Below, in pieces: positions 1,125 to 14,521 of a stretch of DNA of 45,748 nt; position 1 is the first letter of the stretch, and every line of letters starts with the position of its first letter. Where the stretch lies: assembly GCA_023645945.1 (NCBI GenBank), contig JALAIB010000025.1, positions 1 to 45,748 of the forward strand, given 5' to 3'. Both the position numbers and the translations under genes were made by a program. This stretch comes from Diploschistes diacapsis (taxonomy: Eukaryota). A model generated the notes under the pieces. That model saw nothing but the letters and a program-made list of their open reading frames with translations. It had not been told where the DNA came from and did not search any database.

Positions 1125-1326
1125 ATGAAGGGCGCTCTCCAGACGTCGGCAATCCTCCTGCCTTTGATCCTATCTCTTCCCGCGGAGGCTGTTCCCAAAA
1201 GGGGAAAGGCCAGTGGCGGCTCCAGCAGCACTCAGGGCGGGAACCAGGTGTCGACCAAGTACGATTTTTCAAAAGACAAGTTTGGCGATGGCGCTACCTT
1301 GAACATCCCCACCCAGTAAGTTTCGC

Positions 1327-1361
<35 letters not shown>

Positions 1362-3088
1362 GCTATTTCGGACTAACTGGTCGCAGGAATGGCATCAAGG
1401 GCGGAAACACCGTGAGCCGACGAAGCCTCGAAGACTTTGACCTTTACGTTCGCGAAGCACTCGCCGAGCCGAAGAAGAAGAAGTCGGGTTCGACAACATC
1501 GGGCGGCAACCAGGTGCAGACAACCTATGAATTCAATAAAGACCAGTTTGGCAACAATGCCGTCCTCAATCTCGGTGTCCAGAACGGCGTGCAGGGAGGA
1601 GGAACCAAAGGCAAGCGGGCCATTGCAGATCTCGAGCTTTTCATTCGGGACCTCGAGGAGGAAATCCTGTATAGACGCGAGGCCGAGGCCGAGCCTTTCC
1701 TCAACGGCGGCGCTGCCAAGGGCGGCGACAGTAGGACCAAGGGCGGCAATCAGGTAAGAACTTATGAAAACACCCTCGGCAGACCATATACTAACCACGC
1801 TTGGCAGATCAAGAACAACAACAGTGCGAAAGGGGGCAGCTATGGGCCCGGCACGACGATCAACATGTCAAACCAGAACCAGCAAACGGGAGGAAATACT
1901 ATGGGTGGCAAGGGCGGCGCGAATACTGGCAATGGCGGCGGTGGAGGAGGTTTCTCCATGCCCATCCAGATGCCGCCCTTTGTCCGACGCTCGCTCGACT
2001 ACTCAGAGGCCCACGAGGGAGGCCTGAACCAAATCAGCACGCATCACCGCTTGGGACCCAACGGAATGAGTATGCACTCGACTATTCGTCAAAAAGGTGG
2101 GAACGCACAAGGTCGCGACGGTGCCTCGAATTCCGCCAACGGTGCGGATGGCAAGAGCGTTACCCTTCCCACCCTTCACCTTCGCCGCTGGCTCGAGATC
2201 CGCGACGCCGAGGCTGAAGCATTGATGGACGGCGGAGGTGCCAAGGGCGGCGACTCCAAGTCCAATGGCGGTAACCACGTAAGTTCATAGGAGATCCATT
2301 TGTTAGACCCCAAGTACTAAGCACTCTGGACAGATCAAGAACCACAACAGTGTCAAGGGTGGCAAGTACGGCGCAAACTCGAATATCCAGATGGGCAACC
2401 AGAACATCCAGAACGGTGGAAACACCAGGGGTGGGAAGTACGTTTGAATCCCGCAGGTCAGGAAGGCTCTCGTACTAACAGCGCGCAGTGGAGGGATGAA
2501 TACGGGCAGCGGAGGTGCAGGAGGAAGCTTTTCGATCCCCATGCAGATGCCGCCCATGCGACGCTCGCTCGAGTATCTGCGGTCACGCGACGCTTTTGCG
2601 GAACCCGAGCCCTTTTTGAACGGCGGCGCCGCCAAGGGCGGTGACTCCAAGACCAAAGGCGGGAATCAGGTATGAACCCGGAGGCTTGGAGCTGGAAGGA
2701 GTACTAATACGTCTGGCAGATCAAGAACCACAACAGCATCAAGGGGGGCAAATACGGCCCCGGAACTACCATCTATGCCGGTAACCAGAATTCGCAGGTG
2801 GGCGGCAACACAAAGGGAGGCAACGGCGGCGTCAACACCGGCAACGGCGGAGGAGGAGGAACTTTCTCCATGCCCATCCAGATGCCGCCCTTTGCCAGAC
2901 GCTCGCTCGACTACCTAGAGACCCGGGATGCCGACGCGGAGGCGGAGGCGGAGGCGGATGCGGATATTGACATCTACTACGAGCTCTATGCGCGAGAAGC
3001 GTTTGCCGACCCCGATGCCGAGGCCGAAGAGTTCGACCTGCACGCACGCGATGCTTTCTTCGACGATGATTACGAGCTGAATTACTAG
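1125..3088 (+). CDS. Secreted Kex2-processed repeat polyprotein (KEP), ~560 aa, with Gly/Asn/Gln-rich cargo peptides separated by acidic spacers
   Basis: Exons 1125-1315, 1387-1753, 1808-2278, 2334-2437, 2489-2669 and 2720-3088 total 1683 nt and are open through all five GT..AG introns, each with a CTAA(C/G/T) branch point. Signal peptide MKGALQTSAILLPLILSLPAEA. Repeated KR/RR and LxxR sites are followed by EA/DA/EP dipeptides. Three 77-78-aa repeats align without gaps. Confidence 0.9.
1331..1359 (+). repeat. poly-T homopolymer (29 nt) in intron 1 of the KEP gene
   Basis: Uninterrupted T run between the donor GTAAGT (1316) and the branch point GACTAAC (1371-1377). Confidence 0.9.
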
Positions 3089-3892: not shown

Positions 3893-5483
3893 CTACACAA
3901 CCGTCCAAGGCCCGTCACCCGCCTTTCTCCCGGACCACAATCCTCCCCCCAGCACCCTCCTGAGCAGCACGTACGCCGACACCAGCGATCCCCGCAGCAG
4001 CGCGCCCAGCCTCCGTCCCATCGTCATCGAAGACACTCTGCCCTCCTCCTCCATTCCCATCTCCACCTCCGTCTGCATCTCCCTCTCCGTCTCCCTCTCC
4101 GCATCCCACGCCTGCCCCGCCGCCGCAGCGGCGTCGTGGCCCCACAGCCACGGCTGGAACACGGGGTCGGCCCACGCGTTCGGGTGCCCGTCGAAGGGCG
4201 CCAGCGCCATCAGCCGGTCGCGCTCGCGCTGCTGCGCGCCGTCCGGGAAGCCGTGCGTCGCGCGCATCGCGTGGCTGCGGCGCCGGACCTGCGTTGCGCG
4301 CGGCAGCCGGACCCGTTCGTACAGCGAGAGCACGCGCGGGAGATCGGAGGGGCGAGTGCATTTCCTGCAGAGGGCGCTCAGGGCGACGGCGTCTTCGAGG
4401 GCTTGCGCTGCACCTTGGCCCCTGGGCTCACGGTCAGCGTGACAGGGAAAAACTGAGGGAGGTCGAGGGGGAAGGGGGAGGAGAGGCTTACAGGTATGGC
4501 AGCATGCCGTGTGCAGCGTCCCCCAGCAGTGCGAAGCTGCCTTCCGGCGAAGTCCAGGCTGCGATGTCGCTGCCGCGGAACATGGTCCATTTGCGCGTCT
4601 CCTGGGCGAGCTCGAGGAGCGACCGCAGCCTGGGGTCCCAGTCTTTGAATCGCGCTTCCAGTTCTTCGATAGATGCTTCCTGGGGCCCTATTGCCGAATC
4701 GCCTTCTTTCTCGGGCCCGCCGAGGAAGACGTTGAAGAGGTCGTCTTTCTGCAGGAGATAGCTCACCACGTGCGAGTGCGGGCCGAACCAGGCGTTGATG
4801 TTGGGCGGCTCCATCAAGCTGTGCAGCTCTGGGCGTTTGCGCATGGCTGCGGCTTGCAGCACGATTCGGAAGCCCAGGTCGCCGCTTCGTAGAGGAGGGT
4901 CGGGTCTGCCGAGGAGGATCTCGCGGCATCGGGAATTCTGCCCGTCGGCTCCGATGATGAAGCTGCCGGAATACGCCTCCCCCGAGCTCAATCGAACCTC
5001 TGCTCTTGCAAAGTCGATCTCGCTCACGCCGGCGTTTAGCTTGATTTCGACGCCTAGAAACAGGGCTTCTTCGTACAAAACCCTATGGAGGTCTGCACGG
5101 TGCACGTCGAAGTGGGGGAAGCCGTATTTGTCCATGCAGTAGGGAATCAAATTCTGCCTGGAGAGCACAGAACCATCCCGATAAGACCGCAGTACAATGT
5201 CTTTTGGATCGATCGCGTATTGCATTACCTTCTCCAGGATGCCGAGATCGTTGAGAGCTCGAGCTGCATTGGATGCCACTTCGATCCCAGCACCAACCTG
5301 TGCATGCTTAGCGGAGCCGTAGTATTTGCGCCTGATGCTTAGAAGCTCACTGACCTCGCGGATCTCGTCAACCTTCTCGAGAACCAGTACTGCGAAACCA
5401 GCCTTTCGAATCCCTATCGCAGCGGCGAGCCCTCCGAGGCCAGCACCGACTATTATCGCGCGACAGGATGGTTTAAAGGTCAT
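3893..5483 (-). CDS. FAD-dependent monooxygenase (group A; salicylate hydroxylase-like)
   Basis: Exons 5483-5355, 5297-4492 and 4421-3893. Motifs: GAGLGG Rossmann fold, VGAGIE, HRADL, IGADG, LLGDAAHGMLPYLGQGAAQALEDA, and C-terminal PNAWADPVFQPWLWGHDA. Confidence 0.92.
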
Positions 5484-6906
5484 TGTCGGTGATAAGATGG
5501 CTTCTGAGATGATCCACGAGGGTACGGTATGAAGCAGGTCCTCGAAGGCACTGGCACGGGAAATGAAGAGTCGGAAATTCACTTACGCGATCTCTTCAAG
5601 GACGTGACCATCGTCTATCCGGCGAGACGTGAGACTGAGGCGCGGCTTGAAAAAGGCACAATGTCGGGCGGGCACTTCGGGTTCTCAATTCTGGAACGAG
5701 AGCATGTGGAAATTGCTTCCTATTCTTTTGTGCTTCTCTGATGCCGTTTCTGGATACACGGGTTGCAAGGCATCAACCACGCCTTGCACTGTACAGGAGC
5801 GCTCCATCCAGAAGAATGCATCCAGATGCGAGGCGCAGCACACAAAACACCTAGTGCATACTAATGGAGTGTTTTAACATTTCTGATCTTTCCATTTGAA
5901 CCAGCCTGATCTCCCATTCGGATCCTTTAGGTCTGGATTGGGGCAGGATGGTTGAAGGATCACTTGTGATACTGCGCCATGCCCTATTCGGGAGGGTCTT
6001 GAGCTGGTTATATCTATACCGAGCACTGCATCGATGGCATTCGAGGCTGTGGGATTTGGGCGCGTTTGCGCGGTACGTGGATTGATAAGCCATAGAAGTA
6101 AAAATATGATTTCTAGCAACCATGGCTCATCCGTGGATCATAGCCTTTGAGGAAGATTCCTAAGCGCACGCACCAACTCCACAAGCTCTTGTGTAGATCC
6201 GTGCTCGTGCTGCGATAGTACTGCCTGGTGGACTTGATTTCATCGTGAACCCTACGTCTGCAGTTGACGTGGTTGATGGCTAGTATCTAGGTAAAGCAAT
6301 TGTGTGTCATGATGCTACGGTAGTGGCTGGTCCTACCCTCATGTGGTTGCGAGGCGGGGCGTAACAGCTTTACAAAAACACTTGTTAAGCAGATGGTGTC
6401 GACAATCCGTTTCCGGGCTATGGAATTTCCATGCAAAAGGGGGTGTTGTCGGTTTCTGCCTTCGGCTCGGGATAAAGCAGGGCTCCCGTGCACGGCGCGG
6501 CATCAAACGTTGCATGTTGCATTCGTGGAGGATTTCGCGGTATACGCCATATTAGTGCTTAGAGACGTTGATATGATGAGGCGCATTAGAGTGCGATCCT
6601 ACGCACTTGCCAGTGCTACTGCTAGGGTCCCGAGATTATTAGCCTTGGTATCTAATTAAATTCATCAGCAACCTATAACTCAGGTCCAGCCACGGTTGGT
6701 GCGACATCCGAGTGTTACGTTGGACGTTGGGAGACTGAAAAGGTTATTGTAAGAGGATATTGGGTCAGTGAGCATCTCGCTCGTCCCCATGGTCGCTACG
6801 GCAAGTTCATCATATCCCGAACTGGCAAGCTTCATATGCTTCTAATGTTCGTGAATTGGTAAGAGAACTAGAGCCTAACTACAGCCTCAAAGGAACCATA
6901 GGCCGA

Positions 6907-7893
6907 TTACCGCCCAGCATTCAGCCGCGAGACATACTGGACCAAGCTTCCCAGCACGATACTTAGCCCAGTGAAGAGCCAAGAACCCCGGTGAAACCAC
7001 CAGGCACAGTCTGCGGGATTCTTCAAGTCTACAGTGACGACCATTGTCGCACCACTGATTGCTACACAGACACATCCAAGATAGTAAGAAAGCCCTGCAT
7101 CGATAAAGCTGCCGGCAGCGATCAGCAAGGCGACCTGTAGTAAACAGAGACAAGAAAGGAATGGCTTGGCGATAGCTTCGAAACGGATGGCGATTGACCG
7201 GACGCCCTCCTTTTTGTCGTCTCGAATGTCCTGGTGAGCATAGACAGTATCGTAGAGAATAGTCCACGCTATTCCCGAGCCATAAAGAAATGCCACGACC
7301 GGCAGAACTTGCCGGTCAGTAATCGGATCAAGGCCCATTGCGACGAAGCCCATGACGAAGCCGTAAGCCCAAGTAAATCCAAGAATGACCTGCGGGTAGT
7401 CTGTACATCGTTTCCCAAGAGGATACAAGGCAATCAGAAGGATTGATGGGATACCATAGTAGACGCATCGGAGAGGGAAGAGGTGGAATATTCCAATACC
7501 CAAAAGACTCTGGAACACGTTGTAGAGTAGTGCTGCTCGGGTCGAGATGGCACGCCGTGCGAGAGGTCTGTTCTTCGTCCTAGTGACTCGTCGATCTATA
7601 TCCTGGTCCAATACATCGTTCCACGTGCAGGCAGCACCTCGAAAGATTATAGAGCCAACGAAGAACAAGAGAGCTGTCTTGAGGACATCAATTGGGGCTG
7701 CAATAGGCTTGGTGAGAGAGGCCGCGAGTAGAGTTGCTGCGAGTGCTGGCAGGTAGAGATAGAGCGTGCCGGCAGGCTTTCCGAACCGTATGAGCTCCAA
7801 GTAGGGCCCGAAGGCTGAAGGCTTGCTGGTGCTCAACGGAGGCAGCAGCTCTGCCTTCTCGTTGGGAAAATTCATGTATGGAAATGACTGCAT
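6907..7893 (-). CDS. UbiA-family aromatic prenyltransferase (4-hydroxybenzoate polyprenyltransferase/COQ2-like), intronless
   Basis: Aspartate-rich motifs WNDVLDQDIDRRVTRTKNRPLA and YDTVYAHQDIRDD, plus PYLELIRFGKPAG and KRCTDYPQ, and multiple TM helices. Start is ATG 7893 or 7875. No obvious mitochondrial presequence. Confidence 0.92.
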   Translation of the reverse strand: MQSFPYMNFPNEKAELLPPLSTSKPSAFGPYLELIRFGKPAGTLYLYLPALAATLLAASLTKPIAAPIDVLKTALLFFVGSIIFRGAACTWNDVLDQDIDRRVTRTKNRPLARRAISTRAALLYNVFQSLLGIGIFHLFPLRCVYYGIPSILLIALYPLGKRCTDYPQVILGFTWAYGFVMGFVAMGLDPITDRQVLPVVAFLYGSGIAWTILYDTVYAHQDIRDDKKEGVRSIAIRFEAIAKPFLSCLCLLQVALLIAAGSFIDAGLSYYLGCVCVAISGATMVVTVDLKNPADCAWWFHRGSWLFTGLSIVLGSLVQYVSRLNAGR

Positions 7894-9063
7894 AACTGTG
7901 CAATGGTGGGAGACGACCAACGACCACTTTATTCAACGAACGTACTAGTTCTCACAATGGTGAAGTGGAAGACGAATGCTGACCGATGGAAACAGTGGGA
8001 TAGGGGGGTTAATAGAAGGAGGACACAACTCTTAGCACCTAGTTCCAGCCTAGATGTAGGCGCCGTTGCAGTTGCTCCCAGTCTGCAGATTGTGTTCTGT
8101 TACCCGGTAGTATGGGGGCCAAGAATTGCCATATATCCGAGCGTGTCAAAACAACGAAAGAGACGGGCATAGCACATGACGGTGCCTTCATGGACCCAGA
8201 GCTCGCGACATTAGAAGTCTCGCTTTGCATGGTTGTTTTTCACCATGCTTGGAGTAAGAGCCACGATCCCTATATGCAACAGTAAGAGTCCGAAAGGGGT
8301 ATTGGTTACTGGAGGTTGCTGCCTACTTGAGACGGTACCTATTCCTTCCGTGCCTTTGCGTCTTTAGATGAAGCTGTAAAAGAAGAGTCTTTATGCAATG
8401 CAACTACACCCATCTCTACTGAGCCGGGGCGTCAAGTCTTCAACTGAGCATGAGGCTGCAAGACGATAGCGCCATACCGTCACATCAGCCCGTTAGAGAG
8501 CTACCACAAGGCTTGCTCGCCCAAGAAAAACGAAGCGCGAGACAGGCAGTATAGGACGAGCGCGGTCAGAATAGCTATGCTGCACAGAAGAAGCTTTTCC
8601 CATGAAACAATCGCACACCTGTGTCCGTGCAACAAGTGCACCATCACCTCCTGGGTAACATTCTCCTGGGCTCGACTCTACTTTATGCCTTCAAGGCAGT
8701 CCAGGTCTGTGCCTCCTGGATTCAGTTAATAAGATCCTCTACAAGCCGTGCCATGGCTTCTGGCTAGACGCTCAGTGTACTGCGCCATGTCATTTGCATG
8801 CTTCTATTGTTTTGGTTTTACTGTCAAACGTGCATCCCATGTAACTTTTTTATGATGGTTAGACTGCTTTCATCCAAAGGATTCCACTTCTGGTTGTGGA
8901 CCATGAATATGGTGGCATACTTCGAGTCTCACCTTGCTTGGAAGGTGCACAGTGTATGGCATGCTAGGAGTTTCTTACAAGCTGGGGCCTTGATATTCAC
9001 CTTTTACCGCCCTGTTGTTTCTCTTCTCATTTCTTGACAGATATCGACCGTATCTATACAATC

Positions 9064-10560
9064 ATGGACGCACTGGTAGGGACATGGTCCCCAACTAGCG
9101 ATTTGAATGCTTCGCAGCAGCGAATCGTGGCTACGGTGGTGTTGATGCTGCTTCTGTCCACGCTTTTCTACGTTCTCCGATTACTGGTAAGGCATCGGAA
9201 AGGGTCAGCTTGGAAAGGGGACGACTTGTGCGCTGGTATAGCGCTGGTAAGTATTCAATATACACTCGGGCTATTAGCCAACATTACGCAGGTTCTTTCC
9301 TATGGCCCAAACATCACGATTGCAGTTGCTATATATTACGGGCTAGGCGTCCCAGAGGCTGATGCTGGCTTTCTAAATGCCCAGAAGACACTTATTGTGA
9401 GACCGTCTCGGCCCACTGCGCGGTCATATTACTAACAATCCTCAAGCTGGCCTGGGTCGAATCTCTCTTCTGGCAGCTCGCTATGCCCTTTGTCAAGTTC
9501 TCCCTGCTTCTTCTCTACGTCCGCCTCTTTCCAACCCCAGAGATGCGCCGTGCCAGCCTCATTATCGGCATCTTCGTTCTCGCGTGGATGCTCGTCACAA
9601 CCGGCGTCTTCATCTTTGCCTGTTTACCCGTACAATACTACTGGGACAGAGAAATTCCCGGTGGTCACTGCATCAATTATGACCTCTTCTACATAATCAC
9701 CGCCGCGCTCAACACCGTCACGGACGTTATCGTGCTCCTTATGCCGTTGAAAGTCGTCTGGAATCTTACTATCACACGCGCGAAGAAGATTGGGCTCTCT
9801 GTTGTGTTTTTGACCGGGCTTTTCGCCTGCGCGGCTAGCATCGTGCGCATGATCCTGCTCAACGAGCTTGATCCATATAACATTACGGGTGAGCGCCACG
9901 ACCGACATTCCATTTATTCGTAGAGAAAGAAAGACCTGTCATATTCCTGAGCCAAAGCACTACATTCGAGCTTCTACCGCTACCTGCGCACCTCAATGAT
10001 ATTTCACGCGGCCCACAATGCTGCATCTGCATTTTCCCCTTCCCTTTGCTGCTTTCGAGACGCCCCCGCTAACCCTTCCCCAACTAGGTTCCGCCATCGA
10101 CACCGCGATCTGGACCTGCATCGAAGTCTCCTCCGGCAGCATCGCCGCCAACATCCCCGTCCTCGCCCCTCTGTTCTCGCCCATCGCGCGCTTCTTCACC
10201 GGCCGCACCGGCTCCTCGGCCAGGAAGACCCCCGGAGGCGGGTACGCGCTCCCTCAATCCCAGCGCGACAGGATGGAGAAGTATGCCCGCTACGGGCGCT
10301 CCGGTGGGGGAAGCAATGGCGGGAACGGACGGGGAAAGAGAGCGGGAGCGTTGGGGAGACTTTCGGGGTTCACGACTATTGACGAGACGGTAGGGGATCC
10401 GGGCGGAAAGAGTAGAGGGTTTGGGGAGCGCAGAGAGGCGGAGGGGGAGAGGGAGAGGGAGATGGAGATGGAGATTCCGTTTGGGGCGATAGGGGTTCAG
10501 AGTGACTGGGATGTTGATTCGGTGCCGGCGCAGAAGGAGTTGTTTGGGGGGGGGCGTTAG
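9064..10560 (+). CDS. PTH11-like / fungal rhodopsin-domain integral membrane protein (no CFEM domain)
   Basis: Exons 9064-9246, 9292-9396, 9447-9888 and 10088-10560. Motifs: GDDLC, VKFSLLLLYVRLF, CLPVQYYWD..GHC, NTVTDVIVLLMP, KKIGL, ASIVR and WTCIE..IAANIP. Confidence 0.88.
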
Positions 10561-10997: not shown

Positions 10998-13757
10998 TCA
11001 CTGCTCAGAATTTGAATACCAGTTCCCGTACGGCATGCCGTTCTGCGCCTGCCCCATGGAGAAGCAGTCGTGGAAGTAGGTCCCCATCATGTTGCCCTCG
11101 GAGCCAAAGGCCGAGCACATGGCGTGCTCCAGCTCCGGGTCGATCGTGTGCTGGTAGGGCCCATCCATGCTGTAACCGCTTACGTTTGCGAAGTCGTGCT
11201 GGTTGGGGTAGTATGGCTGGGTCTCTGTCACGTAGGGCTGTGAAGCGTACGAGTTTAGTTGGTTGTACCAGCCCTCTTGCGGCGGAGGTGCTTGATGGGG
11301 CTGCTGATGCTGTAGCCGAGACACTCGCGATTGTGGTTGTTGTTGTTGTTGTTGAGCAGGACAGACTGGCTCGTTCGAAGCGACCTCGCTTAGGATACCC
11401 AGGGGAGTGCCACCGATCTGCGGAGTAGGCGCTGAGGCCTTGCGATGTGAAGGTGGGGCTAGAGTGTCCGGTTTGGGGTGGATAGCAGGCGATTTGGAGG
11501 TTGGCTTGCCATCCGAGTTGGTCTCGCTGTGCACAGATAATTTGCGGTAGCCTAGTCTGGGGGTATTCCTTTCGCTGTCGATAGGCTCCGCTGGAAGCTG
11601 TGAAGGATCGGGCCCTTCTCTTTTTAGTAGCCTCGCCTTTGGTCCGTCCCGCTGCCTCTCGTACCAAGATTTGAATATTCTTAGCACCATCTCGAATTTT
11701 TGTACTGCGGGGTTGTGGTCGTCATGGTTTGAAGCTTGCAGCTTCTGCATGATTCGGTTCAGGTACTCGCCGACAGGCATCGAAGCTAGTTCTCCGGGGT
11801 TATTTTGCTTTCTCACGGAGCCGGTCACCCGAAGGTTGAGGAACATCAAGAAGATGATCAAGTACGTAAGTCGGGTGAACCACAGGCTGGGCAGGGCATC
11901 CAGATGGTCCTGTGGGATGGACAGAAATATCTCAAGAGCATCCTGCATCGGTTCTGGGGAGGGCATAACAGCCGTGAGTGCTGTGTCCGACATGGGCTCA
12001 CCATATCTGTAAAGGAAGTCCTGCTTGGACTCGGCTGTCGGAGGTACCGAACCATTTGATTCTCCTAAACTAGTGATCATGACTTGAAGGGACGAGAAGT
12101 AGATGAGAAGGAATTTGTACATGAACCTAAGCGAATCTAGTAGGCATCAGCAAAGGAGATGAGAACAAAACCAAGCTACCACTTACAGGAACCCGACGCT
12201 TCGATATCTGGTCCATTCAGCTGTGTTTGTTTCTCAAGGTCGGTCAAAGCCCGTGAGATATCGATCGCTGTTCCTTCCTTGAAGAATAGCCCAATCGCCT
12301 GGTCATAGATTCTTTGCAGTTTGGCCATGCGGCACAGAATTATATCTGTTGATGCCGCATCTTCGGCATTCTCAAGCACCTTGACTGCTTCGTCCATGAA
12401 CCTGCTCCAGTGAACGGTGTTCTGCTGCTTGAGGTTCGTGGAAGAACTACAGTACATTAGAATGGCCCATGGTGCCGGAAAGGATAGACACTCACATTCC
12501 GCTCAACAGGAAGCAGCCAAGCAAAGCTCTCTTCCTCTCCACCATAAGTTCCTTCTTTTCTGAAGGCAATCTCGACGCATTCCTGCCTAAACCAAACCCG
12601 AGTGGGGTGGGGTGGTTCTCATGGATGAATTTGATGGCCACTCCCATTGCTGCGGCCATCTGAGATAGCTGGAAGGGCCTCGTATCGTTCTGATCCTCGG
12701 CAAAGTGCCAAGTTGTCGATATGTGCATAGCTTGGATTAGCTCCAGTGACTTTTCACCCTTGTTTACAACGCGATCAGCGTACGTTTGCATGATCTCCCT
12801 AAGAAGGGTCCGCTGTATGTTGGAATGCTTGTGTCCAGAAGCCACACTCAGGATCGCTAAAAACAAGATGGGCCTCTCCCTTCGAATGTCGCCAACTGTG
12901 GCACAAGGAGGTATGACCACGGCAGGCAAGTACGGAGCCATATGCTCTCTGTAGTAGTTGAACATCTCCGCAGCTACCGCAGAGCTCAGCACCTGACGAT
13001 CAATCACATCCGCGTATTCGTGATTCTGGAAAGAGTTTTCGAGAGGAAGAGGTGCAGCAAGGGCGTGGTTGAGGGAGGCTGCCGCAAGTTGCTTCGCGCT
13101 GTGTCCGAGATGACTTGAGCTTGACAGATCCTGCCCCCTCTCGAACGTAGACCTTCTACGCTTCCGGCTGGGCTTCGCATCCGACAGCATCGGATCATGA
13201 GGCTCGAGAGAGTTCTCGTCAAGCTCGTCCTCGTCCTCGCCGAGTTTAGCATTGTTGCCCTGCACAGCGACCAGGGAGGCTGTCAATGCATCGATTTTCT
13301 TCTCCAGCTCTGCGACCTTGTTGTCTGCTTTCTTCTTGCGTTTGTGGCTCGGCTCGGTGAAGATACAATTCCTATCTGCTTTGGCGCATCTCTTACACGG
13401 GCCCGTCATGGAGGGGTCGCGCTCGCATCTAACCTTGAGGGCGCGACAGGACTCGCACGACCGGGGCCGTTTTTGAGCATCTTGTCCATCACCTTTCTGA
13501 TTCGGTGACGATATAGCGATATCTAGAGTCTCCTCGCTTGGAGGTAATTCCGGCTGTTTGGCACTATAGTAAGGGAGGTTAGGATCTTGTGATATTGAGG
13601 GGAGAGTTGAGCTCTGCTGCTGAGGAGGTGGTAATCGGCGGATTGGGTTCAGGGTGTAGGGCGACTGCGCGTTCTGGGGTGGAGGATATCTGTAGACGTC
13701 TGAGTATGGCTCCAAAGGCTTCTGCTGGCTGCGAAGCTGGGGATCAAGGGCCTCCAT
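10998..13757 (-). CDS. Zn(II)2Cys6 transcription factor with fungal TF middle region (WAR1/PriB-like)
   Basis: CESCRALKVRC..PCKRCAKADRNC zinc cluster, coiled coil VAELEKKIDALTASL, and PILFLAILSVAS middle-homology region. Three exons match ORFs 12492-13757, 12176-12457 and 10998-12122. Likely start MEALDPQ at 13757. Confidence 0.9.
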
Positions 13758-14521
13758 CGACCTTCGTCTGCCTCGTCTCGATTTTTCAGTCGGCAAGTAC
13801 GGCGCCGACTCACCGACCGGTAAGGTACCACAAAATAGAGCTCCAAGGCGGGTCAAGAATATCAAATAACTTTGTCTAGATGTCCCCTTTGGCAGTAGCA
13901 AACCCGAGAGCTTACTTAGTTGAACTCATGCGTCCCATTCTACAAAGCTGCCAGATAATCGGCTATGATGGATCTGGAGAAAGTTCACGGCCGGGGTGGA
14001 ACAAGGGGTGTTCCAGTTGCATCATACGCTAAGCAGCGTACAAAGATAACTACTTAGAATACCTTTCGACGGGCTATTTTTCTACAACAGTTGCTGCGCA
14101 ATGTCCTAACAGCTGTGTGTGTAATTGCATAGAAGTATAGAGGATCTTATTTACAAGATGAGCCCTTTTCGGCAGACGCGCTATTTGTTCCGGGATTGTA
14201 TGGCATGAAGAACTTACAGCTTCATATTCAAGTAAATATATTTCTATGCAAAAGACTCCCTGAGCCCTAGCCTCACTCTCCCTTCAACCGAGCTTCTTTA
14301 GTAGCTGAACACATTTCTAAGCCAGCTGGTGTAGATTCGACGTTCTATTCTCCATAGCTGCAACGAATCTTAAAGGGTTTTGTGTCTGCACACTCTCTCT
14401 TCCCTGAGCCGGGGTTTGCACCGTTTCAGCTCTTGATACGGAACAGTGCTGTTGCTTTGGCATGCTGATCTATGCTTCTTTACCTTACCCTTGATTCTTT
14501 ACCACATGCTCTGACATAACT

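Follow-up and report, generated by a model that had tools for sequence, protein, structure and literature searches.

Motifs of a predicted secreted repeat-peptide precursor from Diploschistes diacapsis probably belong to a Kex2-processed repeat protein and not to the HET-s/HRAM family

The window analyzed here, a stretch of 45,748 nucleotides from Diploschistes diacapsis (contig JALAIB010000025.1), carries near its start a gene for a repeat-peptide precursor of 560 amino acids. We spliced this gene by hand into six exons, using GT..AG introns with branch sites CTAAC, CTAAG or CTAAT. The spliced frame is open and its length is a multiple of three, and homologous proteins without introns are colinear with the precursor across the exon junctions. 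DNA sequencing runs containing the stretch come from a lichen metagenome, a rock metagenome and one further organism; no RNA sequencing runs containing it are listed. The features of the locus are as follows.

1125-3088, + strand: gene for the predicted secreted repeat-peptide precursor, 560 aa, six exons, spliced by hand
1125-1315, 1387-1753, 1808-2278, 2334-2437, 2489-2669 and 2720-3088, + strand: exons of the precursor gene
1316-1386, 1754-1807, 2279-2333, 2438-2488 and 2670-2719, + strand: introns of the precursor gene
1125-1190, + strand: predicted signal peptide MKGALQTSAILLPLILSLPAEA, followed by VPKR; identified by inspection of the translation, with the same layout in homologs
1236-1411, + strand: module 1 (aa 38-72), in a short-type peptide; holds motif 1260-1313 and spans intron 1316-1386; core profile 40.2 bits, second profile search 45.3 bits
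1502-1609, + strand: module 2 (aa 103-138), in a short-type peptide; holds motif 1526-1579; core profile 22.5 bits, second profile search 27.5 bits
1697-1984, + strand: long peptide 1 (aa 168-245), FLNGG...MPPFV, flanked by RR-EAEAEP on the N-terminal side and RR on the C-terminal side; interrupted by intron 1754-1807; 51.1 bits
1742-1903, + strand: module 3, within long peptide 1; holds motif 1820-1873
1991-2188, + strand: degenerate sixth unit (aa 248-313), His-rich, with an RR end; aligns with a long unit of homologs, core profile only 10.5 bits
2222-2558, + strand: long peptide 2 (aa 325-401), LMDGG...MPPM, flanked by R-DAEAEA on the N-terminal side and RR on the C-terminal side; interrupted by introns 2279-2333 and 2438-2488; 49.3 bits
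2267-2429, + strand: module 4, within long peptide 2; holds motif 2346-2399
2613-2896, + strand: long peptide 3 (aa 420-497), FLNGG...MPPFA, flanked by R-DAFAEPEP on the N-terminal side and RR on the C-terminal side; interrupted by intron 2670-2719; 56.1 bits
2658-2815, + strand: module 5, within long peptide 3; holds motif 2732-2785
2903-3085, + strand: acidic C-terminal tail (aa 500-560), net charge -20, with an aromatic/acidic end (...DDDYELNY), like the tails in homologs

An earlier note on this DNA had drawn attention to five motifs of 18 residues, and translation places all of them exactly at the positions given there: NSAKGGSYGPGTTINMSN (1820-1873), NSVKGGKYGANSNIQMGN (2346-2399), NSIKGGKYGPGTTIYAGN (2732-2785), YEFNKDQFGNNAVLNLGV (1526-1579) and YDFSKDKFGDGATLNIPT (1260-1313). 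All five are copies of a single 36-residue module and align without gaps over its whole length, with the pattern GGN-Q-h-x5-h-x-K-x2-[FY]-G-x4-h-x-h-x2-Q-N-x3-GGNT. The precursor thus contains five modules, two in short peptides and three in long ones, together with one decayed copy. Within the module, the flagged 18-mers correspond to the end of the first strand, the turn with the invariant Gly and the start of the second strand. We built a core profile of 37 columns from 35 long units of the family. The two N-terminal motifs, which the earlier note had called more distant, prove to be akin to the others, since their core profile scores of 40.2 and 22.5 bits compare with at most 5.4 bits in 180 shuffles, and against one profile the five modules of the window score 27.5-56.1 bits. 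The long peptides of the window are 77-78 aa in length, Cys-free and Asn/Gln-rich, with a net charge of +4 to +6 and 29% Gly. Long units across the family have net charges of +3 to +6 and 24-29% Gly (18 units tabulated of 35), and spacers have net charges of -2 to -20.

The peptides had been described as cargo of a secreted, protease-cut precursor, and the predicted signal peptide, the dibasic sites and the Ste13 signature all point to this reading. Besides acidic spacers, the precursor has eight dibasic KR/RR sites, and its six exon translations have no Pfam domain match at E<=10. The signal peptide would take the precursor into the secretory pathway, and a kexin would probably cleave it on the C-terminal side of Arg or Arg-Arg. 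Next, a Ste13-type dipeptidyl aminopeptidase may strip the X-Ala/X-Pro runs (EA-EA-EP, DA-EA-EA and DA-FA-EP-EP), as for yeast alpha-factor, and a Kex1-type carboxypeptidase may trim the C-terminal RR. The Ste13 signature is defined as an X-Ala/X-Pro run after a basic site (PMC6339444). Such a run stands in register directly before the mature N-terminus in 28 of the 35 long units, including all three of the window; every run has an Arg before it, and the remaining 7 units miss the register by one Gly or one residue. What counts against assignment to the Kex2-processed repeat proteins (KEPs) is that the upstream cut would follow a single Arg in 26 of these 28 units, rather than the classical KR or RR.

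With KEPs, of which yeast alpha-factor is the prototype (PMC6339444, PMC7329392), the precursor has in common a predicted signal peptide, similar peptides repeated between KR/RR sites, and runs of X-Ala/X-Pro. It differs in that its peptides are much longer (77-78 aa) and Gly/Asn-rich and in that two peptide classes carry one 36-residue module; in addition, most upstream cuts in the present family would follow a single Arg, no Pfam family fits, and every named member is a lichen-forming Lecanoromycete. That the motifs belong to a KEP and, at the same time, are not HRAM members is a joint statement we consider probable; it concerns what the motifs are and does not extend to their function. A dikaritin-type RiPP reading was rejected: neither of the modifying-enzyme genes, UstYa/DUF3328 or tyrosinase, is present among the 18 neighboring ORFs scanned, and the peptides are far too long. 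Known dikaritin cores are far shorter than the peptides of the window.

The family comprises 42 representatives among 1.84 billion proteins. The precursor architecture is kept in 17 proteins, and likewise across the 42 representatives. Named relatives are all lichen-forming Lecanoromycetes, and the family appears limited to lichen-type fungi. Members carry only hypothetical-protein labels and have no Pfam family, and a published description of the family was not found in the literature searched, which took in passages of the lichen RiPP paper (PMC12048977). It is probably a previously unnamed KEP family. Matches to Pfam at E values of 0.039-5.3 (DUF596, PX, Gly_rich_2, Apidaecin and others) and PDB profile matches at E values of 0.068-1.6 were judged to be low-complexity noise, and a query of the ESM Atlas with one mature unit of the homolog P0010 gave no usable match.

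The earlier note had further proposed that the motifs are in register with the repeats of the HET-s prion domain (HRAMs). The HET-s repeats that it quoted are correct, being contained in the 21-residue r1 and r2 motifs in supplement file 2 of PMC4518210. If the motifs were truly related to HET-s, each peptide would be an HRAM-type rung, forming an extracellular HET-s-like beta-solenoid or interfering with the NLR/HeLo signaling of other fungi. The copies in the window do share with HET-s the starting Asn, alternating hydrophobic residues and a Gly-Asn end 18 residues on: all three keep N3, hydrophobic residues at positions 5, 10, 16 and 18 and N20, and two of the three keep G19, so that the register agrees with HRAMs at four of the five hydrophobic positions and at both polar sealing positions. 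Monomers are predicted to be disordered in both systems. HRAMs also tolerate very low identity, many having less than 10-15% identity with HET-s (PMC4518210). When the whole precursor is compared with the HET-s repeats without gaps under BLOSUM62, the top-scoring window pairs unit 2 with r1 (score 28, within-unit shuffle p of 0.004), and the close relatives P0016 and P0017, like window unit 2, beat within-unit shuffles against r1 (p 0.004-0.006).

The likeness nevertheless weakens once the whole precursor and the whole family are considered. A score of 28 is equalled or passed by 4.7% of 20000 whole-protein shuffles (p=0.047). At the flagged position, units 1 and 3 reach a score of 14, less than the average of 19.7 for shuffles. 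When residues are shuffled within each unit, unit 2 alone among the three of the window stands out (units 1 and 3 give p=0.20 and p=0.28, respectively), and p exceeds 0.05 in 30 of the 35 family units. Since the three window copies are paralogs, they count as one observation, not three. Conservation across the 35 units points the same way. The HRAM-defining Gly19, a perfectly conserved residue of the third beta-arch in HRAMs that two of the three window units have, is found in 11 family units and is replaced elsewhere by Ser (17), Gln (6) or Pro (1), and none has the positively charged K/R of HRAM position 15. Hydrophobic residues occupy HRAM positions 5, 10, 16 and 18 in 35, 30, 35 and 34 units, respectively; position 8 is hydrophobic in only 9 and is Gly in all three window units. 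The Gly that is invariant in the module (35/35) falls at HRAM position 11, which is not a Gly position in HRAMs. The 18-residue spacing emphasized in the earlier note holds in the window copies and breaks down in the family, where 19 of the 35 units have a one-residue insertion between positions 10 and 11. Lys6, present in all three rungs, probably lacks the acidic partners by which the two HET-s rungs pair.

Database searches and architecture also argue against membership. The Pfam family HET-s_218-289 (PF11558) matches none of the six exon translations and none of 20 family members at E<=10; this miss alone is weak evidence, because PF11558 matches only 38 of 155 true HRAM proteins (PMC4518210). 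PDB sequence searches returned no HET-s chain. HRAMs, which fall into five subfamilies with 310 motifs, are laid out as r1, a loop of 6-18 aa and r2; they occupy the C-terminus of HeLo, HeLo-like or sesA proteins or the N-terminus of an NLR, and the neighboring NLR gene carries a matching r0 motif (PMC4518210). Their r1/r2 rungs are paired and cytosolic. In the predicted secreted precursor the rungs are single: the flagged motifs of the long peptides start at aa 191, 348 and 443, leaving gaps of 139 and 77 residues that contain RR sites and acidic spacers. The r1-loop-r2 layout is absent from the precursor, as is any HeLo, HeLo-like or sesA domain, and the N-terminus carries a predicted signal peptide instead. 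Of the 56 ORFs of at least 130 aa listed in the 42 kb downstream of the gene, 18 were scanned, and none of these has a NACHT, NB-ARC or HeLo domain; upstream of the gene the window offers 1.1 kb. With the Pfam, PDB, shuffle and conservation tests mostly against it, kinship with HET-s is highly improbable. The motifs are most probably not an NLR-type amyloid signaling motif, and their likeness to HET-s looks like chance or convergence of two strand-turn-strand sequences that both contain Asn and Gly, not like homology.

The suggestion that one module supplies one rung of a stacked beta structure fares differently, in that it fails for an HRAM rung and finds weak support in structure prediction. 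Full-length AlphaFold2 models were made for the homolog P0001, not for the window protein. In the best of five models, four modules form confident strand-turn-strand units (strand pairs 34-42/51-60, 116-124/133-143, 221-229/239-249 and 328-336/346-356; block pLDDT 76-90, pTM 0.42), and this is the only confident model of the five (mean pLDDT 50.6 vs 39.0-42.8 in the others). For repeats, AlphaFold2 is reported to over-predict beta-solenoids, with high confidence even where the fold is unrealistic (PMC11795689). Structural comparison of the P0001 model with the PDB listed 50 matches, among which 21 chains span modules, all at Z<=5 and so below the level of trust, chance level being Z 7-8. We take these 21 chains to be beta-helix, solenoid-type or functional-amyloid folds. 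Among them are the CsgA fibril (Z 5.0, rmsd 9.1 A, 88 residues aligned) and FapC (Z 3.0, rmsd 2.8 A, 82 residues aligned), both below the trust level. HET-s fibril chains are not among the 50 matches listed, an absence that excludes nothing. A second structural comparison aligned only four chains (best Z 2.6), and Foldseek returned no PDB match for the model at E<=0.001. For a 64-aa fragment of the window protein, AlphaFold2 gave an uninformative model with a pLDDT of 51.6 and no secondary structure, and a four-copy complex prediction scored 0.03, which is evidence neither way. The invariant Lys of the five modules, together with a net charge of +4 to +6, would probably oppose in-register homotypic stacking.

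Because of the strand-turn-strand model and the beta-helix and amyloid matches, the idea of a cross-beta rung survives weakly, as an analogy with curli or repellents and not with HRAMs. Curli CsgA (8enq) and FapC (9u4u) consist of strand-turn-strand repeats that are imperfect copies of one another, have a high content of Asn, Gln, Gly and Ser and stack as rungs of an extracellular beta-solenoid (PMC10192328, PMC12392863), and in this they resemble the present modules as modeled. They are among the best structural matches to the P0001 model, yet weak ones, and no Curlin-repeat Pfam match was obtained at E<=10 in 20 family members. The rungs of the present family differ in being about 36 residues long, eukaryotic and located in separate peptides after predicted cleavage. 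The repellent precursor Rep1 of Ustilago maydis is a secreted pre-pro-protein from which cleavage along the secretory pathway yields many peptides, and these form amyloid fibrils on the surface of hyphae (PMC3133707), so that a secreted, protease-released fungal amyloid is already known in principle. Both precursors are secreted and multi-peptide, as far as prediction goes for the present one, and the likeness drawn here is one of description; Rep1 differs in coming from a basidiomycete and in yielding 11 peptides.

As to function, we tentatively suggest, at somewhat less than an even chance, that the released peptides act outside the cell, where their modules would self-associate into stacked beta structure and serve as surface or matrix material, much as Ustilago repellents or curli do. 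The main alternative is that the peptides are soluble defense peptides, cationic, Gly-rich and Cys-free, that act as antimicrobials or control the microbiome or photobiont with no need of ordered assembly; the acidic spacers would then act as neutralizing propieces, like those of insect precursors that carry several peptide copies. Antimicrobial peptides of 50-130 aa that are cationic and Gly-rich exist, as do multipeptide precursors of the apidaecin type, and the charge and Gly content of the units, the opposite charge of the spacers, the multi-copy precursor with its X-Ala/X-Pro runs and the featureless prediction for the monomer fragment all agree with such a role. It is made unlikely, while still a serious contender, by the lack of any match to an antimicrobial family (of 20 members, one matches Apidaecin at E=0.3 and two match Gly_rich_2 at E=0.94, neither significant) and by the gapless 36-residue register, in which Gly, Lys, the aromatic residue and Gln-Asn are invariant across five modules and many species. 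So strict a register suggests a structural constraint, for which a disordered membrane-active peptide would have no need.

Alternatively, the peptides could be diffusible signals made by the alpha-factor route, pheromone-like or serving the symbiosis, with the module as a ligand surface read by a receptor. Known pheromone-type peptides are much shorter than 77-78 aa. The low complexity of the present products, the occurrence of two different peptide classes with one common module and the lack of receptor evidence likewise tell against signaling, which we regard as improbable even though the combined Kex2 and Ste13 signature is a hallmark of alpha-pheromone-type precursors (PMC6339444) and the family has so far been seen only in lichen-type fungi. 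Returning to self-association, a more specific form of it is distinctly unlikely in our estimate: separately cleaved peptides would co-assemble, one rung per module, into an extracellular curli-like beta-solenoid fiber, a eukaryotic 'split solenoid' functional amyloid seen so far only in lichen-forming fungi. If this were true, the acidic spacers would keep the rungs apart until secretion, and the fibers could build thallus matrix or hyphal surface, or have ordered Asn/Thr/Ser/Gly faces turned towards water or ice. The ice nucleators of lichens are proteinaceous.

A secreted HET-s-type prion motif, if true, would have moved amyloid signaling motifs outside the cell; since the tests do not bear this claim out, it should not be propagated. 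What is left is a probable KEP family whose cationic, Gly/Asn-rich peptides are unusually long and share a strictly conserved module, predicted to be strand-turn-strand. If these peptides self-assemble, they would be a second case of protease-released functional amyloid in fungi, after the Ustilago repellents, and candidates for a structural or protective role in the lichen thallus.

The five motifs singled out in the earlier note lie exactly where it placed them, at 1820-1873, 2346-2399 and 2732-2785 (close copies) and at 1526-1579 and 1260-1313 (distant copies), each in one reading frame when the window is translated. Free-standing ORFs were rejected as a reading of them, all five falling within one spliced precursor gene. 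The introns of this gene were picked by hand (canonical GT..AG, 50-71 nt, CTAAC-type branch sites), which gave a coding sequence of 1683 nt and a protein of 560 aa. The gene model is supported by alignment, since its exon junctions are colinear with uninterrupted homologous proteins.

Features of the precursor gene and its product
1125-1315, 1387-1753, 1808-2278, 2334-2437, 2489-2669 and 2720-3088, forward strand: predicted exons, spliced by hand
aa 168-245, 325-401 and 420-497: long peptides 1-3, 77-78 aa each
1991-2188 (aa 248-313): decayed sixth unit, His-rich, ending in RR
2903-3085: acidic C-terminal tail with the tip ...DDDYELNY

Read directly from the sequence, the predicted product is a secreted multi-copy precursor with an architecture conserved across its family. 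Its translated N-terminus is hydrophobic and of signal type, there are eight KR/RR sites, and basic Gly/Asn-rich peptides alternate with acidic spacers. By composition, the three long peptides carry a net charge of +4 to +6, with 29% Gly and 18-21% Asn+Gln, and their mature N-termini read FLNGG or LMDGG. Directly before these termini stand in-register X-Ala/X-Pro runs (EA-EA-EP, DA-EA-EA, DA-FA-EP-EP), with Arg before each. For family counts, 35 long units (49-84 aa) were excised from the window protein and the homologs P0001-P0017 and aligned; 32 are complete (76-84 aa) and three are shortened by mis-spliced models. The homologs P0018-P0052, 16 of them inspected by eye, were left out of these counts. 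A run in register, with Arg before it, precedes the mature N-terminus in 28 of the 35 units and is off by one Gly or residue in the other seven; eight internal matches to the pattern were set aside from this count. The upstream cut site is dibasic in only two of the 28. Such runs match the Ste13 signature that the available part of PMC6339444 gives for precursors of alpha-factor type and for Kex2-processed repeat proteins (KEPs). On this signature, a kexin would cut after Arg or Arg-Arg, a Ste13-type enzyme would strip the X-Ala/X-Pro pairs from the peptide N-termini, and C-terminal RR would be trimmed, releasing two short and three long peptides with one module apiece. Every full-length member of the family has a long acidic C-terminal tail with an aromatic/acidic tip (...YDEYDY, ...FDEYEY, ...EFDEYDF or ...AYYYY in homologs), and conservation of the tip suggests a possible role in sorting or chaperoning.

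A 37-column core profile matches the window's short N-terminal peptides at 40.2 and 22.5 bits, as well as those of all eight other precursors tested (nine family proteins in total), while 180 shuffles peak at 5.4 bits. The five window modules align without gaps over 36 residues. All begin with GGN and have hydrophobic residues at 5, 11, 22 and 24; Lys at 13 and Gly at 17 are invariant, position 16 is aromatic, positions 27-28 are Gln-Asn, and positions 32-33 are GG followed by N/G-T. The flagged 18-mers are the middle of this module. Because all five form one gapless module, the grouping into three close and two distant copies was right. The decayed sixth unit aligns with a long unit of homologs, yet reaches just 10.5 bits against the core profile; a His-rich decayed unit is also carried by P0010, P0020 and P0025.

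Phase-0 introns of 50-55 nt (1754-1807, 2279-2333, 2670-2719) lie at the same point of every long unit (GGN[Q/H] / IKN), which implies that intron and unit were duplicated together. Unit 2 alone is also interrupted by a fourth intron, 2438-2488, after GGN-T-R-GG. Five predicted proteins (P0015, P0016, P0017, P0028, P0030) end or run on into odd residues exactly at these two places, and this looks like intron read-through in their gene models. Intron 1 contains a run of 29 T at 1331-1359.

The earlier note gave the HET-s repeat sequences correctly. Its headline claim, that the 18-mers match the HET-s-related amyloid motif (HRAM), is not borne out, the likeness being thin in profiles, shuffles, position rules, architecture and context. 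The Pfam profile HET-s_218-289 (PF11558) matches none of the six exon translations and none of 20 family members at E<=10, and no HET-s chain was listed at E<=10 when PDB chains were searched with a single sequence or with the family profile. The PF11558 miss is weak alone, because that profile detects just 38 of 155 HRAM proteins (PMC4518210, section 4, in the part available). When ungapped BLOSUM62 windows of the precursor were compared with the two 21-residue HET-s motifs, the best was unit 2 against the first pseudo-repeat (r1), with a score of 28, which 4.7% of 20000 whole-protein shuffles equalled or beat (mean 19.7, sd 4.2); for units 1 and 3 the score at the flagged motif is 14. Within-unit shuffles gave p<0.01 in three of the 35 units (window unit 2 and those of its close relatives P0016 and P0017), p of 0.05-0.07 in two more, and p>0.05 in 30 of 35. 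The signal is thus limited to a single sub-lineage, and the family consensus lacks it.

The HRAM rules (PMC4518210, sections 4 and 9, as far as available) were applied to the 35 units in the window's register. Hydrophobic positions 5, 10, 16 and 18 are kept in 35, 30, 35 and 34 units. Position 8 is hydrophobic in only nine and is Gly in each of the three window copies; Gly19, "perfectly conserved" in HRAMs, occurs in 11, and no unit has the positive charge that HRAMs conserve at position 15. Nineteen of the 35 units have one residue more between positions 10 and 11, which destroys the 18-residue spacing. The Gly that is invariant in the family (35/35) falls on HRAM position 11, a salt-bridge position in HET-s. 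HRAMs consist of r1, a loop of 6-18 aa and r2, whereas the window copies are separated by stretches of 139 and 77 residues that include cleavage sites; the precursor also has a signal peptide in place of a HeLo-type domain. No NLR-type domain was found among the 18 ORFs scanned of 56 listed downstream of the gene in the window. A true HRAM is therefore very improbable, and we conclude that the resemblance probably reflects chance or convergence, both sequences being strand-turn-strand units that contain Asn and Gly.

One precursor exon used as query retrieved four Xylographa-type proteins, and a family profile retrieved 17. When 1.84 billion representatives were searched exhaustively with a profile, 42 matched at E<=0.001 (21 at E<=1e-10), so the family is small. 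Its named members, all labelled "hypothetical protein", belong to lichen-forming Lecanoromycetes (Lambiella, Icmadophila and six species of Xylographa). For the neighbouring cyt-4 gene, the closest named relatives are from Lecanoromycetes too, with identities of only 35-39%, and the window DNA occurs in a lichen and a rock metagenome run. No Pfam family was found for the window protein or the family proteins searched, and no description of the family in the literature searched, including the available part of a lichen RiPP paper (PMC12048977). By every sequence-level feature tested the precursor appears to be a member of the known KEP class, within which it would represent an unnamed family with unusually long peptides, lichen-only so far among named members.

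Other ORFs of the window
4488-5582, reverse strand: FAD-dependent monooxygenase
6907-7932, reverse strand: UbiA-type prenyltransferase
9363-9923: fungal-rhodopsin-domain membrane protein
12492-13925: Zn2Cys6 regulator

These four ORFs may be part of a small prenylated-metabolite cluster, the first two lying 1.4-4.8 kb downstream of the precursor gene; no link between them and that gene was found in the window. About 0.8 kb upstream of the start codon, a 44-nt inverted repeat (119-162 and 287-330, 98% complementary, arms 124 nt apart) could be a small foldback or MITE-like element. Positions 1-70 are AT-rich trinucleotide-like simple sequence (AGT/AAT repeats), in contrast to the GC-rich remainder.

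A 64-aa window fragment alone was predicted as featureless (pLDDT 51.6). The full-length homolog P0001 was folded by AlphaFold2 with a 20-row family alignment, and one model of five had confident modules (mean pLDDT 50.6, 42.8, 40.7, 39.1 and 39.0). In this best model (pTM 0.42), ten-residue blocks reach pLDDT 76-90 over approximately residues 30-60, 110-140, 220-250 and 320-360, strands pair at 34-42/51-60, 116-124/133-143, 221-229/239-249 and 328-336/346-356, and two spacers hold helices. By homology, the 18-mer would comprise the end of the first strand, a Gly turn and the start of the second. Foldseek returned no match to the model. Among the 50 matches listed by an exhaustive VIA-align search, 29 cover a spacer helix only and 21 span the modules; judging by their titles and known folds, all 21 appear to be beta-helix or beta-solenoid proteins. 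They include the CsgA curli fibril (Z 5.0, rmsd 9.1 A, 88 aligned), SufB/SufD-type chains (Z 3.9-4.6), a tailspike (Z 3.6, rmsd 2.9 A, 87 aligned), the FapC amyloid (Z 3.0, rmsd 2.8 A, 82 aligned), Candida Awp adhesins, filamentous haemagglutinin, a pentapeptide-repeat protein, MinC and pectate lyase. These matches indicate that AlphaFold2 placed the four P0001 modules as stacked rungs. The reality of that arrangement does not follow, since no Z reaches 7-8, the range that the tool itself assigns to chance, only one model in five is confident, the model is of a homolog, and for repeat sequences AlphaFold2 is reported to predict beta-solenoids that are confident yet unrealistic (PMC11795689, in the part available).

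The invariant Lys and the net positive charge of the peptides argue against simple homotypic in-register stacking, and are easier to reconcile with mixed stacking, counter-ions or an absence of stacking. The main rival to assembly is a soluble cationic Gly-rich defence peptide with anionic propieces, which we consider unlikely; a signalling peptide is more doubtful still. Our tentative preference, held at somewhat below an even chance, is for extracellular assembly, whose nearest working analogues are bacterial curli and the Ustilago Rep1 repellents, the latter processed to 11 peptides, which assemble as amyloid fibrils on aerial hyphae (PMC3133707, in the part available). The acidic spacers would keep the modules apart in transit, and the released modules may then associate outside the cell into stacked beta structure, serving as surface or matrix material.
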